The notes: a model not told the origin generated them from the letters alone. DNA of 24,000 nt from Candidatus Micrarchaeota archaeon (GCA_040755655.1 JBFMAP010000002.1:1398-25397), one strand, 5' to 3'; shown: positions 12,520 to 16,958, counted from the stretch's first letter. Numbers and translations are program-made.

Positions 12520-12693
12520 CGCAAAGGAGGCGCTCTACCGCTGAGCTACGAGCCCATAAAATATTTCGGCTTCAAGAACGATTAAACGAACGAACGCTGC
12601 TTGCACTTATGTCGTTTAAATTTCCGATCAGGTTTCATCTCGAAAATTTAAGGAGGTGATCTATCCGCAGGTTCCCCTACGGATACCTTGTTA

Positions 12694-12744
12694 ATCGCCT
12701 TAAAAGCTGCAGCGAGTATATTTCACTGGCAACTTTTAAAGATA
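12694..12744 (-). other. 16S insertion A, 51 nt, ORF-less, about E. coli 1499 (inside the 1492R target)
   Basis: AAGTCGT|...|TAACAAGGTATCCGTAGGGG is split. The insert pairs ttaaaag/cttttaa and tgc/gca. Confidence 0.75.
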
Positions 12745-13027
12745 CGACTTAACCCCCCTCGCAAAGCTCTAGTTCGAAGACGCCAAAAAGCGTCGCCTCA
12801 CTAAAACCTTACTTGGGTGATTTGACGGGCGGTGTGTGCAAGGAGCGGGGACGTATTCACCGCGGGATGTTGACCCGCGATTACTAGGGATTCCAGCTTC
12901 ATGAGGGCGAGTTTCAGCCCTCAATCCGAACTTGGGCTGGGTTTGAGGGATTAGCTCCTCCTTTCGGAGTGGCAACCCGTTGTCCCAACCATTGTAGGCC
13001 ACGTGTGGCCCTGGAGATTTAGGGCAT

Positions 13028-13071
13028 GAGCGGATGTATCGCGCGTACGAATGTCGCGGGATAGGTCCTAT
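13028..13071 (-). other. 16S insertion B, 44 nt, ORF-less, about E. coli 1200-1205
   Basis: GACGGTAGGTCAGTA|...|ATGCCCTAAATC is split. Confidence 0.7.
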
Positions 13072-13180
13072 ACTGACCTACCGTCGCCCCCTCCTTCCTC
13101 CTACTTAACGTAGGCGGTCCCCACAGGGTGCTCTTCTTCCGGAGAAGAAGGTCGCAACTGTGGACGAGGGTCTCGCTCGT

Positions 13181-13753
13181 AACCGGACGATCAGAGCGCA
13201 AAAGCATTAAAGATGTTGCAGCATTTCTTTCGATTCCGCGCGCCTCACGAATTTCGCAATGAAATTCGCAAATTCGCGCGTGTTCATCACCAAAAGTTTT
13301 CCCTTGTTGAAAATGTTGTGAAAACCTAGCCGCTCGAGAAGAAGCGCGTCTTCCTTCGTGCCTCGCGCAATGAAAATTCCCCTTCCCATAATCCCACCGC
13401 GCGCATCGAAAATTCCAGCAAGAAACCGCGCGGAGTATTCATTCTTCCATCTGAAGAAATGAAGCTCCTCGCGCGCGATGTTCTGGAAAAATTTCCTGTA
13501 CGCGGAGTGATGGAAGTAAACCTCCTTCTCCTTCACCTGAATCTCGTTCGGTTTCGCGAGCCCGAGTCGCAGGGATTCCTTTATGAAAATCTCCTGCAGC
13601 GTGCTGCCCGCGGCCACGCCAATCCCCTTCGAGGATGGGCGCGCCTTCCAAATTCCGATGAGATACGCAAGTTCCGGAGTCAGTTTTATTTTCATCTTTT
13701 CACTCTCGAGTTTTTCATCTGGTTTTCATAAGTAAGACTGCGCTCTGAACGTT
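13181..13753 (-). mobile_element. 16S intron C, 573 nt, LAGLIDADG-encoding, about E. coli 1093
   Basis: AAGTCCGGCAA|...|ACGAGCGAGACCC is split. There is a 10-bp perfect pairing of the intron ends (13191-13200 tcagagcgca with 13739-13748 tgcgctctga). Confidence 0.9.
13207..13695 (-). CDS. LAGLIDADG homing endonuclease, compact double-motif (162 aa)
   Basis: Motifs LAYLIGIWKA and ARFLAGIFDARGG. ATG start. The ORF lies entirely inside intron C and in the same sense as the rRNA. Confidence 0.85.
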   Translation of the reverse strand: MKIKLTPELAYLIGIWKARPSSKGIGVAAGSTLQEIFIKESLRLGLAKPNEIQVKEKEVYFHHSAYRKFFQNIAREELHFFRWKNEYSARFLAGIFDARGGIMGRGIFIARGTKEDALLLERLGFHNIFNKGKLLVMNTREFANFIAKFVRRAESKEMLQHL

Positions 13754-13800
13754 TGCCGGACTTAACCGGACAGTTCGCACCACGAGCTGACGATGGCCAT

Positions 13801-13835
13801 TAGTGTTCCAGCAGAGCATACGCTCCGGTGGAATT
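13801..13835 (-). other. 16S insertion D, 35 nt, ORF-less, about E. coli 1052
   Basis: GAGGTGGTGC|...|ATGGCCATCGTCAGCTCGTG is split. Confidence 0.7.
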
Positions 13836-13951
13836 GCACCACCTCTCGGCTCGTCTGGCAAGATCTTTGGTCTGGCCTTCATTCTGCCGTCGCTCCAGGT
13901 AATGTTCCCGGCGTTGAATCCAATTGAACCGCAGCCTCCACCCCTTGTGGT

Positions 13952-14002
13952 ATGGGCGGGGAAAAATCAAAAAGTAATTTCAAAAAATTTGACTTCCCCC
14001 CA
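13952..14002 (-). other. 16S insertion F, 51 nt, ORF-less, about E. coli 932
   Basis: TTGGCGGGGGAGC|...|ACCACAAGGGGTGGAG is split. The insert has G-rich and C-rich ends around an A/T-rich centre. Confidence 0.7.
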
Positions 14003-14015
14003 GCTCCCCCGCCAA

Positions 14016-14047
14016 GTAAGGGGACTGGGTTTTGCAAACCCGTATCC
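14016..14047 (-). other. 16S insertion E, 32 nt, ORF-less, about E. coli 919
   Basis: AACTTAAAGGAAT|...|TTGGCGGGGGAGC is split. The insert has a GGGTTT-TGCA-AACCC hairpin. Confidence 0.7.
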
Positions 14048-14678: not shown

Positions 14679-14718
14679 TCAACCTTGCGGCCGTACTCCC
14701 CAGGCGGCAGACTTAACA

Positions 14719-14757
14719 CTTGAGCCTGCGCGAGACGAAATTCGCGCGTCTCGTGCA
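14719..14757 (-). other. 16S insertion H, about 39 nt, ORF-less, about E. coli 865 (tentative)
   Basis: There is extra sequence between GTGCCGTAGCGTAGAC and TGTTAAGTCTGCCGCCTGGGG, containing a CGAGACG-CGCGAATTT-CGTCTCG hairpin. This region is naturally variable, so the call is weaker. Confidence 0.45.
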
Positions 14758-14837
14758 GTCTACGCTACGGCACTACAACAGCTCGAAGCTATTGTAACAC
14801 CACAGTCTGCATAATTTACTGCTAGGGCTACTCGGGT

Positions 14838-15551
14838 TTTCAGTATCACTTGAGAAATTTCGCCAATCTTCTTTTTTTCGATTGATGTTTAAGGGAGACG
14901 TGTTTTGCAAACTTCTGCAAATCATCTCTCCCATAGATATAAATCTCGTATTCGGGATTTTTATATCTCGTCCGGGTATAGTTGCTATATCCCACTCCGA
15001 TGCTACTCAAAAATTCGCCAAGAAATTCAAAGACGCTTTTTGAGGTGGTTGAGATGTTGAGTTCGGCTTGTCTTTTTTTGACGCATCCTTCTGCATCAAA
15101 AAGGCCTCCAACATATTCGGCCTGCAAAGACTTACTAAGTTTTTTCATATAAGAAGGTACATGCAAGTTCTGTCGAACTGCGCCTTTCGGCACTTCCATG
15201 ACTTCAACCAGAAACTGATACACCAATACACTCTTTGTATGGCTGTAATACGTGTTTCTGTTTATATCGTGGAACGTGTTTAAATTCACGCCAAAGACAG
15301 ACTTGAAAGCTCTTCTTATTGATTTATGGAACTCTCTGCTCTGCTCGGTGAAGAGTATTCTTCCGCCAGACATATTTCCGTCGCCGTGCAAAATGCCGAG
15401 TAGTCTGCACAGCTCAGGCGTAACGCTGGTTGGAAGATGAACCTTCAAAAGAGGCTTTTTTCGCCCTTTTTTCATAAGGTTTCTTACCCGGTGCTCTAAT
15501 CTCATGAAGAGATTTAGTCGAAAGTATTTATTAGCGTTTCTCAAGTGCGAT
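14838..15551 (-). mobile_element. 16S intron I, 714 nt, LAGLIDADG-encoding, about E. coli 794 (inside the 806R target)
   Basis: GGATTAGAT|...|ACCCGAGTAGCCCTAGC is split. There is an 11-bp perfect terminal stem (14847-14857 cacttgagaaa with 15537-15547 tttctcaagtg). Confidence 0.9.
14846..15505 (-). CDS. LAGLIDADG homing endonuclease, double-motif (219 aa from ATG 15505; 232 aa if the TTG at 15544 is used)
   Basis: Motifs LCRLLGILHGDGN and QAEYVGGLFDAEGC. Same sense as the rRNA. Confidence 0.85.
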   Translation of the reverse strand: MRLEHRVRNLMKKGRKKPLLKVHLPTSVTPELCRLLGILHGDGNMSGGRILFTEQSREFHKSIRRAFKSVFGVNLNTFHDINRNTYYSHTKSVLVYQFLVEVMEVPKGAVRQNLHVPSYMKKLSKSLQAEYVGGLFDAEGCVKKRQAELNISTTSKSVFEFLGEFLSSIGVGYSNYTRTRYKNPEYEIYIYGRDDLQKFAKHVSLKHQSKKRRLAKFLK

Positions 15552-15562
15552 ATCTAATCCGA

Positions 15563-15606
15563 TTTGAACTCGTTGGAGAAGACATTCAATTCTTCAACTC
15601 CGCCGA
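15563..15606 (-). other. 16S insertion K, about 44 nt, ORF-less, about E. coli 781
   Basis: GCTAGGAGAACGAA|...|TCGGATTAGAT is split. The boundary is ambiguous by 4 nt because of a TCGG repeat. The insert has an internal GTTGAAGA/TCTTCTCCAAC hairpin. Confidence 0.65.
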
Positions 15607-15660
15607 TTCGTTCTCCTAGCCTTCGTCCCTCACTGTCAGACGTGTTTTGGTCAAGCGCCT

Positions 15661-15690
15661 TGACGCTGCGCGCGCCCGAGCGCGCGCAGA
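15661..15690 (-). other. 16S insertion J, 30 nt, ORF-less, about E. coli 727
   Basis: CCAGTGGCGAA|...|GGCGCTTGACC is split. The insert is a CTGCGCGCGC-TCGG-GCGCGCGCAG hairpin. Confidence 0.7.
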
Positions 15691-16112
15691 TTCGCCACTG
15701 GAAGTCCTTATAGGATTACAGGATTTTACCCCTACCCCATAAGTACTCTTGACCTCCCCCACTCTCAAGCCCGCCAGTATTTCCTGCACGCCTTCAGGTT
15801 GAGCCTGAAGATTTCACAGGAAACTTAACGGGCCAGCTACGGACTCTTTAGGCCCAATATTCGTGGACACCACTTGGGCTGCCGGTGTTACCGCGGCGGC
15901 TGGCACCGGTCTTGCCCAGCCCTTATTCTACAAGCGTCTTAAGCTTGTAAAAAGATGCTCGCGTGGAGCATCACTCAGAGTCCCCCTGTCACGCTTTCGC
16001 GCATTGCAGAGGTTTCGCGCCTGCTGCATCCCGTAGGACTAGAACCCTTGTCTCAGTGTTCTTCTCGGGGCTCCAACTCCCATTGCCCCCACTGATTATC
16101 GGCTTGGTGGGC

Positions 16113-16328
16113 TTGCACTGCGAGACCAAAAAACAAAAATCAAAACAAACACCGCAAACTCGAAACTCGAACCCAACAAACAAAAACAAAAAATCACGCG
16201 CTCGCCAACTCGGGTTGGCTCGCGTCATTCGGCGCGCGCGCCTCGAGGCGCGTCTTTTGTTTTGTTGTTGGTGTTGTTGTCGTTGTTTGTGGTGTCGTTG
16301 AGGTTGGTGATTCATTTTGGTCGCGCAT
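16113..16328 (-). other. 16S insertion L, 216 nt, ORF-less long imperfect hairpin, about E. coli 265
   Basis: GGTAGTTGGTGGGGCAACG|...|GCCCACCAAGCCGATAATCAG is split. One arm is CA-rich and the other GT-rich, and the ends pair (accaaaa/ttttggt, gcgagacc/ggtcgcgc). Confidence 0.75.
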
Positions 16329-16958
16329 CGTTGCCCCACCAACTACCTAATCAGGCGCAGTCTTATCCCATGGCAGACCCGGCTGCATTTCACCGGGCTG
16401 TTTAAATCAGGAAGCGTTCCAGCATCCCTGGTCTATCGGGTGTTAGCCTCAGTTTCCCGAGGGTATCCCCGTCCGCGGGGTAAATTGACTACGTGCTACT
16501 GAGCCGTGTGCCGCCCTTCGAAGCTCGAAGAGCAGACTTGCATGGCTTAATCGGACTCTGATAGCAGTGCCCTCCAGCAGGATCAACTGGAGTTTGCACA
16601 CTATGTGCATTCCGCAAGCTGTAAGGCGGATTCGCACTCACATACGTCGTTCCTTGTTTGGTTCTTGAAGCCTGAAGTCTAATCCAAAAGAGCTTGGATT
16701 ACCATTTTTCCTAGAACGCGTTCTTTGAGGAGCGCGTTCGATTATGTACGCTGCAGTGGAAGTGAAAATTTCATCGCACGAAAACTCAGAATTCGCGCTC
16801 TTTACCGCCGGAAACTGCAGCGAGTTTTCGGTAGCATATCTTTTATAGAGCAAGGTTTAAATACGTTTTCCTCTCCCTCGGTGGCGCTCAAAAAACACGA
16901 AGAGTACAATTATATCGCGCAAACTGTATTTTGGTAAAATTATTGCAAAATCTAATTA

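Follow-up and report, generated by a model that had tools for sequence, protein, structure and literature searches.

A 16S rRNA gene with twelve probable bulge-helix-bulge introns in a Micrarchaeota-related archaeon

We found that the 16S ribosomal RNA (rRNA) gene in a stretch of DNA from a Candidatus Micrarchaeota archaeon is interrupted by twelve inserts. The stretch is 24,000 nt long (GCA_040755655.1, JBFMAP010000002.1:1398-25397); we refer to all of it as the window and count coordinates from its first letter. The inserts are very likely archaeal bulge-helix-bulge (BHB) introns in the 16S gene of a Micrarchaeota-related DPANN archaeon. Three are long and contain an open reading frame (ORF); the other nine are hairpins without an ORF, most of them so short that we call them mini-introns. 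The kind of mechanism is already known and it is the density that is exceptional: the gene is an extreme case, not a new mechanism.

The Rfam model of archaeal small-subunit (SSU) rRNA (RF01959, SSU_rRNA_archaea) matched a full-length minus-strand gene, 12651-16593, with 917.6 bits over model positions 1-1478. All of the introns described below are on the same strand. Splicing the gene in silico divided its 3943 nt into 13 exons totalling 1493 nt and 12 inserts totalling 2450 nt. A first-pass annotation of the window, made from the sequence alone, had placed the gene at 12650-16595 and proposed twelve inserts of 2447 nt in all, leaving 1499 nt. All twelve were found, with boundaries that differ by 0-3 nt. 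We obtained Escherichia coli positions by MAFFT alignment to rrsB of MG1655, and the intron sites in this numbering are 265, 729, 781, 793, 866, 908, 919, 932, 1055, 1101, 1205 and 1499. The positions given earlier were approximate, and several had to be moved by 1-8 nt (1093 to 1101, 1052 to 1055, 727 to 729 and 794 to 793).

The inserts interrupt the most conserved parts of the gene. The covariance model itself shows inserts of 217 nt after model position 246, 32 nt near 670, 35 nt at 1005, 574 nt at 1033 and 44 nt at 1151, and near 1450 it finds 60 nt where 14 are expected (an insert of ~46-51 nt). In the middle of the 16S, inserts were placed by direct reading and spliced alignment. At all twelve junctions the joined exons match the conserved consensus, as judged by the Rfam model and the alignment to E. 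coli rrsB. Examples of joined exons, with a slash at the junction, are GGAUUAGAU/ACCCGAG, CUUAAAGGAA/UUGGCGGGGG and AAGUCGUA/ACAAGGUA; GAUUAGAU/ACCCGAG is also predicted as a join. As the first-pass annotation had supposed, the inserts fall in conserved cores and not in variable helices: by the covariance-model and E. coli alignments, 11 of the 12 are inside conserved single-stranded or junction sequence. The places interrupted include the 790 loop, the 908-932 region, helix h34 and the h44/h45 linker adjoining A1492/A1493.

All twelve junctions also have a BHB motif. We took the rule for this motif from a perfect hBHBh' intron at position 37/38 of the neighbouring transfer RNA (tRNA)-Ala gene. 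Here H denotes four exon bases and H' the intron positions -6 to -3, with which they pair; the cut falls after the second base of each 3-nt bulge, and the interior of the intron forms the helix h'. We called a motif strict if all four pairs of H are present and h' starts at once, and relaxed if H has three of its four pairs, a bulge is enlarged or h' is offset. Six junctions are strict (729, 781, 919, 1055, 1101 and 1499). The other six are relaxed, with three of four H pairs at 265, 866, 932 and 1205, a 5-nt bulge at 908 and an offset h' at 793. As a null, we tried the same set of intron lengths at every position of the gene, and in testing the counts we granted each site three equivalent placements. 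The frequency per position was 0.17% for strict and 7.5% for relaxed motifs. Against this null, strict motifs at 6 of 12 junctions have P about 2e-11 and relaxed motifs at 12 of 12 have P about 2e-8. Strict motifs can be drawn at 793, 908 and 1205 by shifting the junction several nucleotides, and we rejected these because the products would break universally conserved sequence.

The nine ORF-less inserts, which had been described as self-complementary, all fold as hairpins. Folded alone, each gave 1 unpaired nt, then a hairpin, then exactly 6 unpaired nt. This is the footprint expected of b3, h', H' and two bulge bases, and it fits a BHB intron. Folding z-scores were between -1.8 and -5.1 for eight of the nine and -0.7 for the intron at 781.

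The longest of the nine is the site-265 intron (16113-16328; 216 nt, no credible ORF), which the covariance model shows as the 217-nt insert at 246. It is in the loop of h11 and forms a long hairpin, rich in C and A on its 5' arm and in G and U on its 3' arm (z = -3.85). Its H pairs GCAA with GUGC at three of four positions, h has 6-8 bp and is the h11 stem itself, and h' has 4+4 bp. The site-729 mini-intron (15660-15690; 31 nt) is strict, with GGCG AA/U, an 11-bp h' and CGUC AA/G, and its removal gives GGCGAA/GGCGC (slashes in motifs mark cuts). The site-781 mini-intron (15564-15607; 44 nt) is also strict, with GAAC GA/A ... GUUC AA/A. At site 866 (14720-14759; 40 nt) the motif is relaxed, with three of four H pairs: GCGU AG/A, a 12-bp h' with one A.C mismatch, and GCUC AA/G. 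The site-919 mini-intron (14016-14048; 33 nt) has a strict motif with an h of 3 bp, AAGG AA/U GGAU...GUCC CCUU AC/U.

The mini-intron at 932 (13952-14002; 51 nt) has three of four H pairs (an A.G mismatch), with GGGA GC/U, a 14-bp h' and GCCC AU/A; the exons join as GGGGGAGC/ACCACAAGG, and the fold has z = -3.19. The mini-intron at 1055, in helix h34 (13800-13834; 35 nt), is the covariance-model insert at 1005 and has the strict motif GGUG CA/A UUCCA...UGGAA CACU AA/U (z = -4.80). At 1205 (13026-13069; 44 nt) the covariance model has an insert of 43-44 nt at 1151, and the motif is CAGU AU/A GGA...UCC GCUC AU/G, with three of four H pairs (z = -3.44). The mini-intron at 1499 (12692-12742; 51 nt), between h44 and h45, lies 6 nt 3' of A1493. 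Its motif is strict, with GUCG UA/U, a 13-bp h' and CGAU UA/A, and the exons join as AAGUCGUA/ACAAGGUA; the fold has z = -5.09.

The three long introns were each said to carry an endonuclease gene. Two of these genes were identified by Pfam, and the third had the motif LAGIFDARGG only. The site-793 intron (14838-15551; 714 nt) pairs UUAG with CUGA at all four positions of H, has bulges AU/A and AA/A, and has an 11-bp h' after two mismatched pairs. It carries a LAGLIDADG homing-endonuclease ORF of 219 aa (14846-15505) with the motifs LLGILHGDGN and VGGLFDAEG and matches to LAGLIDADG_3 (PF14528, 3e-17) and Hom_end (PF05204, 1e-5); homologues of this protein are 65-95% identical to it. The site-908 intron (14060-14677; 618 nt) pairs GUUG with CAAC (four of four), with an h of 3 bp, a 5' bulge of 5 nt and an h' of 10-11 bp. 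Its LAGLIDADG homing-endonuclease ORF (14054-14653) would encode ~199 aa from a GTG at 14653 (start predicted); it has the motifs LVGALRDGS and IAGFFDAEGD and matches LAGLIDADG_3 (PF14528) at 1e-10. The TAA stop of this ORF, at 14054-14056, is 4-6 nt into the 3' exon (ACTTAAAGG), and the frame is open upstream, through the exon, to 14719. The site-1101 intron (13181-13753; 573 nt, a 574-nt insert in the covariance model) has the strict motif CCGG CA/A ACG...CGU CCGG UU/A. Its ORF (13207-13695; 162 aa) has the motifs LAYLIGIWK and LAGIFDARGG and no match in Pfam or NCBIfam. BLASTP aligned it to the 908 ORF over 28 residues around the motif (E = 0.001), and judging by its sequence it is probably a diverged LAGLIDADG endonuclease.

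Could the three long inserts be self-splicing group I (or group II) introns and not BHB introns? Group I introns with LAGLIDADG genes are known in Micrarchaeota rRNA genes, including at SSU site 1498 (PMC6125680). We found no match to any Rfam group I or group II intron family, either at the gathering threshold or at E <= 1. A group I intron needs a conserved catalytic core (P3-P9), a terminal G and a U closing the 5' exon; the 793 and 908 introns end in A and the 1101 intron in U, and the 5' exons at 908 and 1101 do not close with U. In addition, all three have a central BHB helix with four of four pairs at a junction that restores the consensus. We give almost no credence to group I or group II introns here. 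The nine ORF-less introns are far too short to be group I introns.

We compared the gene to its relatives. These were found as metagenome contigs and named genomes containing homologues of the 793 endonuclease, and their introns were mapped by spliced alignment, Rfam matches to their intron-rich genes being fragmented. The closest named genomes are Candidatus Micrarchaeota metagenome-assembled genomes (MAGs), with 65-80% identity in the endonuclease and 83-86% in the 16S exons. Eight Micrarchaeota-type loci match the window exactly over the 40 nt at the 3' end of the 16S, and with this sequence as an anchor a metagenome scan gave at least 80 more loci. A metagenome scan with a variable-region anchor gave no matches.

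The most informative relative was a locus we call L031, from sample SRR32167786 (relatives are designated by such numbers below). Its exons are 92% identical to those of the window over 232 shared columns and its 793 intron is 97% identical. L031 has the introns at 729, 781 and 793, and the 729 hairpin has a compensatory change of U:A to C:G. It does not have the intron at 866: it reads GCGTAAGTGTTAAG, to be compared with the predicted join GCGTAG/GTGTTAAG. The exact absence of this segment settles both that the 866 insert, which had been only a tentative call near 865, is real and that its length is 40 nt.

Most sites recur in other relatives. Where a site is shared, introns whose interiors are unrelated still have an H' that complements the exon H. 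Site 729 has unrelated introns in L085, L043, L070, L032 and L072, and L042 has an intron 2 nt off, at 727. At 781 the homologous introns measure 46 nt in L031 and 154 nt in L005 and L014. At 793, 14 other archaeal loci have the same intron site and endonuclease family, with h' covarying. The 793 intron and its endonuclease are also in the 16S genes of Woesearchaeota, Nanoarchaeota, Iainarchaeum, Promethearchaeota and Caldarchaeum; in these lineages H is perfect, and the h' sequences are unrelated yet paired. Six relatives have unrelated introns at 866, with H' ACGC, GCGC or ACGU. At 908 the exon H varies and the intron H' covaries with it (GUUG with CAAC, ACUG with CAGU, GCUG with CAGC). There are introns at 919 in L067, L048, L038, L005 and L008, and L052 has a neighbouring intron of 592 nt about 1-2 nt away from site 932. 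Seven relatives have introns of 509-632 nt at 1101, with H' CCGG or CUGG. At 1205, H has three of four pairs in L042, L104 and L063 as well, and four of four in L026. At 1499, L106 and L095 have introns of 34-35 nt that keep H' CGAU.

These comparisons bear on whether the inserts could be expansion segments, retained in the mature 16S. Expansion segments occur in some archaeal rRNAs, and the site-265 insert is in the h11 hairpin loop, where an extension would be sterically tolerable. Against retention, 11 of the 12 inserts split conserved single-stranded or junction sequence, all 12 have BHB geometry with cut sites that restore the consensus, and related genes differ by the exact presence or absence of inserts. 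We consider retention highly improbable.

Several observations weigh against reading all twelve inserts as spliced BHB introns. Sites 265 and 1055 have no counterpart in any sampled relative. H has one mismatch at 265, 866, 932 and 1205, the bulge at 908 is 5 nt, and two mismatched pairs come ahead of h' at 793. The outer exon-exon helix h is absent or weak (0-3 bp) at most sites. The six relaxed junctions would need an EndA of broad specificity, and neither the EndA gene nor an RtcB gene is in the window. Finally, if the sequence is a metagenome assembly, it could combine introns that differ from strain to strain, and no single cell need carry all twelve.

This last point is part of a broader concern, that the gene or the count of twelve is an artefact of an assembler merging the intron paths of different strains, or that the gene is a pseudogene or dead paralogue. 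The intron content of related genes is indeed polymorphic. Against an artefact, the exons are all there and in collinear order, with high conservation (917 bits over the full model), and the neighbouring 23S and tRNA-Ala genes are equally interrupted and otherwise intact. L031, an independent assembly, repeats the arrangement at 729, 781 and 793, with the 97% identity in the long intron, and independently assembled relatives reach 7-8 introns. Based on these results we think that there is only a small chance that the gene or its count is artefactual.

How would twelve BHB introns be removed? In the precursor rRNA, of the last six exon nucleotides before each intron, four would pair with positions -6 to -3 of the intron to form the central 4-bp helix, and two would be unpaired. 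Also unpaired would be one base at the start of the intron, two at its end and one at the start of the following exon; this would give two 3-nt bulges, and the rest of the intron would close as a hairpin. The tRNA-splicing endonuclease EndA would cut both bulges, and an RtcB-type ligase would join the exons and circularise the intron, leaving a normal 1493-nt 16S. Our analysis shows where the inserts lie, the restored exons, the BHB geometry, the homology of the endonucleases, and the polymorphism and covariation in relatives; the cleavage and ligation of the introns, the type of EndA and the spread of the mini-introns we infer.

It is also conceivable that the inserts are excised at the BHB motifs and the exons are left unligated, giving a fragmented 16S like that produced by bacterial intervening sequences. 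Fragmented rRNAs exist in other lineages, and sequence does not distinguish ligation from its absence. Without ligation, however, the 16S would be in 13 fragments, some of only 11-13 nt (those between 781 and 793, 908 and 919, and 919 and 932), which could hardly be held in the subunit. Moreover, the products of archaeal BHB cleavage are normally ligated, in the splicing of both tRNA and rRNA introns. We regard a fragmented 16S as very unlikely, and splicing with ligation as the probable outcome.

The three long introns (793, 908 and 1101) would spread at the DNA level, by LAGLIDADG homing into intron-less alleles. Indirect support for homing comes from how widely the 793 intron and its endonuclease occur in 16S genes of DPANN, Asgard and Caldarchaeum. 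The nine hairpin introns of 31-216 nt have no mobility gene, and for them the probable route is co-conversion alongside a homing intron close by, or copying into new sites. Five of them are close to a homing intron: 12 nt separate 781 from 793 and 46 nt separate 1055 from 1101, and 866, 919 and 932 are 42, 11 and 24 nt from 908. That five mini-introns are 11-46 nt from an intron with a homing endonuclease appears to fit the co-conversion model, which was described for Pyrobaculum sites 1205 and 1213 (PMC4496867). In two relatives, L093 and L032 (Ga0209211_10005418 and FWPU01037437), the 7-8 introns of the 16S are without exception mini-introns (34-83 nt), and none of them bears an endonuclease gene. 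Thus, mini-introns persist without an adjacent homing intron.

The intron count of this 16S gene is the highest that we found. Among the matches listed, 28 complete 16S genes from metagenomes have 0-8 inserts each, nearly all of which pass the BHB test, and three complete 16S genes from MAGs have 8, at least 5-6 and 4 introns. That is, the 16S gene of the window has 12 introns and the 31 complete 16S genes of relatives among the matches listed have 0-8, a range that comes from a biased sample, as intron-rich rRNA genes assemble poorly. This agrees with the earlier statement that the density is beyond known cases, as does the published total of 13 sites across all archaea (PMC4496867). In our searches of an incomplete literature library we found no report of an rRNA gene with so many BHB introns and no catalogue of mini-introns in the Micrarchaeota clade.

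Across the clade, introns are found at more than 25 different positions of the 16S. Many relatives (L005, L008, L012, L014, L015, L038, L050 and others) have a BHB mini-intron of 28-35 nt at E. coli 525-526, which the window does not have. It splits the universally conserved GCCGCC/GCGGUAA in the 530 loop, the site of primers 515F/519R. Other recurrent sites in the clade are at about 381, 510, 696, 1080, 1197, 1226, 1363 and 1494.

The rest of the rRNA operon is similarly interrupted, bringing the total to at least 24 introns: 12 in the 16S, at least 10 in the 23S and 2 in the tRNA-Ala gene. By Rfam, the archaeal large-subunit rRNA gene is at 8676-12151 (minus strand) and is 3476 nt long, compared to 2987 positions in the model. 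We located its inserts by comparison with E. coli rrlB, the intron-free 23S of Iainarchaeum and the Rfam model. There are at least 10 ORF-less mini-introns of 33-57 nt with BHB geometry, all on the minus strand: five at 12033-12070, 11203-11235, 9948-9984, 9763-9800 and 9519-9563, and five at 9436-9481, 9237-9293, 9157-9209, 8999-9036 and 8837-8874. Several are in the functional core of the 23S, in the peptidyl-transferase centre and H69 regions: 9237-9293 is at A2450/A2451, 8999-9036 follows 2597, 9948-9984 is in the H69 region, and 9763-9800 comes before GACCCC, its boundary being set by comparison with its two paralogues and with the Rfam consensus GCGAAGACCCC. Scanned de novo for BHB motifs, the 23S and the spacer yielded 283 matches, mostly chance, and BHB calls are meaningful only at inserts defined by alignment. 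At 10019-10126 the 23S has an extra 108 nt, which may represent one or two additional introns or an expansion specific to the lineage.

Three of the 23S mini-introns have a core of 31 nt in common, at 87-97% identity, with alignment scores of 23-29 against a null maximum of 12. The shared core sequence GCGCGTCGCGTNTTTTTYAGCGCGCGC is at 12041-12067, 9771-9797 and 8845-8871 on the minus strand (3 matches, with 0 expected in the window). The 31-nt core was found nowhere else in the window and in none of 151 fetched loci. The shared core suggests that these three, at different sites, are paralogous copies of a single mini-intron that moved from site to site.

The spacer tRNA-Ala(UGC) gene is at 12310-12555 (minus strand). 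It scored 29.5 bits in Rfam, was missed by ARAGORN and has an intact G3:U70 pair. Its intron at 37/38 (12496-12519, minus strand; 24 nt) is the perfect hBHBh' motif used for our rule, CCUCC UUUG CG/U CCGGAAU...AUUCCGG CAGA AG/A GGAGG. The T-loop is also interrupted, at 59/60, by an insert of 150 nt (12324-12473, minus strand) that has a relaxed hBH motif. Inside this insert, at 12330-12352 (minus strand), is a second T-arm-like element, GGAGGGGGTTCGAACCCCCTCC, perhaps left over from another tRNA or perhaps a nested element.

It is possible, though we are doubtful, that this lineage is actively proliferating ORF-less BHB mini-introns by copying them to new sites in rRNA and tRNA genes. In hand for this notion are the paralogous cores in the 23S, the differences in presence and absence among relatives, the more than 25 sites in the clade and the at least 24 introns in the operon. 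The route of copying might, for example, be reverse splicing, then reverse transcription and recombination; alternatively, it might act at the DNA level. If true, proliferation would be a prokaryotic counterpart of the intron bursts of eukaryotes ("introners"), tolerable through an EndA of broad specificity. The paralogous mini-introns and the strain-level polymorphism are testable material on how ORF-less archaeal introns move.

If all of the introns are spliced, ribosome production would need at least 24 accurate EndA and ligase reactions per operon transcript. The gene would then be a natural stress test of archaeal splicing and a system for studying the multiplication of introns without a spliceosome. 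It would also extend the proposed link between broad-specificity EndA and intron load from tRNA to rRNA genes. There are practical consequences as well. The introns interrupt the sites of common "universal" primers and probes, 785F/805R, 907R/926R, 1100R and 1492R, and those of relatives with the site-526 intron interrupt 515F/519R. Introns also break rRNA gene predictors. With primer sites interrupted and predictors broken, the clade is likely under-counted in amplicon surveys and 16S databases.

We noted several features around the operon. A perfect 12-bp complement flanks the 16S (16661-16672 and 12568-12579, minus strand; GGCTTCAAGAAC and GTTCTTGAAGCC) and is probably the stem for processing of the 16S precursor, as in other archaea. 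Directly upstream of the 16S, 17001-17500 has an unusually negative GC skew (-0.385) and 57% GC; it overlaps ORFs of both strands (16959-17552) that have weak zinc-ribbon matches only. The genes at 953-8594 include an archaeal-type phosphoenolpyruvate carboxylase, two radical S-adenosylmethionine proteins (one with a B12-binding domain), a double AsnC/NirDL-like helix-turn-helix protein and an AAA_14/DUF4143 ATPase, a metabolic repertoire larger than minimal DPANN genomes usually have. In L005 a similar double helix-turn-helix gene adjoins the 16S.

The introns of the 16S gene closely resemble those of BHB type known from 16S genes in Thermoproteales, Desulfurococcales and Aigarchaeota (Jay & Inskeep 2015, PMC4496867), with which they have sites 781, 908, 919 and 1205 in common. 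In both, the junctions are BHB motifs, the most conserved parts of the gene are interrupted, and LAGLIDADG introns are mixed with hairpins of <50 nt; short hairpin introns and homing-endonuclease introns are both described in Thermoproteales. Hairpin introns adjoin homing-endonuclease introns in both. In contrast, eight sites of the window (265, 729, 793, 866, 932, 1055, 1101 and 1499) are not on the published list, although 729, 793, 866, 1101 and 1499 recur in relatives. The first-pass annotation had named 781, 908, 919, 1092 and 1205 as known sites; 781, 908, 919 and 1205 are listed, and so is 1092/1093, but the ORF-containing intron here is at 1101 and not at 1093. The hosts differ as well: the window is from a DPANN archaeon with rRNA of 49-54% GC, not a hyperthermophile, and has twelve introns in one gene.

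Within the lineage, introns in Micrarchaeota 16S genes have been mentioned (PMC5498576), and BHB and group I introns coexist in rRNA genes of Micrarchaeota and other DPANN archaea (Nawrocki et al. 2018, PMC6125680). The latter study covers the same lineage (its contig MNVE01000016 is our locus L016) and describes multiple rRNA introns with LAGLIDADG genes and a hot-spot at about SSU 1498. The 16S gene here differs in that no group I intron is detectable, all twelve are BHB introns, and most are ORF-less mini-introns, which that study left uncatalogued.

For the splicing enzyme, a close comparison is ARMAN-2 (Candidatus Micrarchaeum; Fujishima et al. 2011, PMC3239211). Its epsilon2 EndA, the only Micrarchaeota enzyme characterised, cleaves BHB motifs of the strict as well as the relaxed kind, and disruptions affect 56% of its tRNA genes. 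ARMAN-2 is of the same phylum and shares with the window relaxed BHB motifs and introns at non-canonical tRNA positions, including 59/60, which is used along with 37/38 in the tRNA-Ala gene of the window. The work on ARMAN-2 was on tRNA, whereas in the window the same pattern fills rRNA genes.

The three 23S mini-introns with the 31-nt core are reminiscent of the transposition of tRNA introns in Thermoproteales. There, Fujishima et al. reportedly found in 2010 near-identical short BHB introns at different RNA-gene sites of one genome. The likeness is in the three copies of one core, and the difference is in the hosts, which here are rRNA and not tRNA genes.

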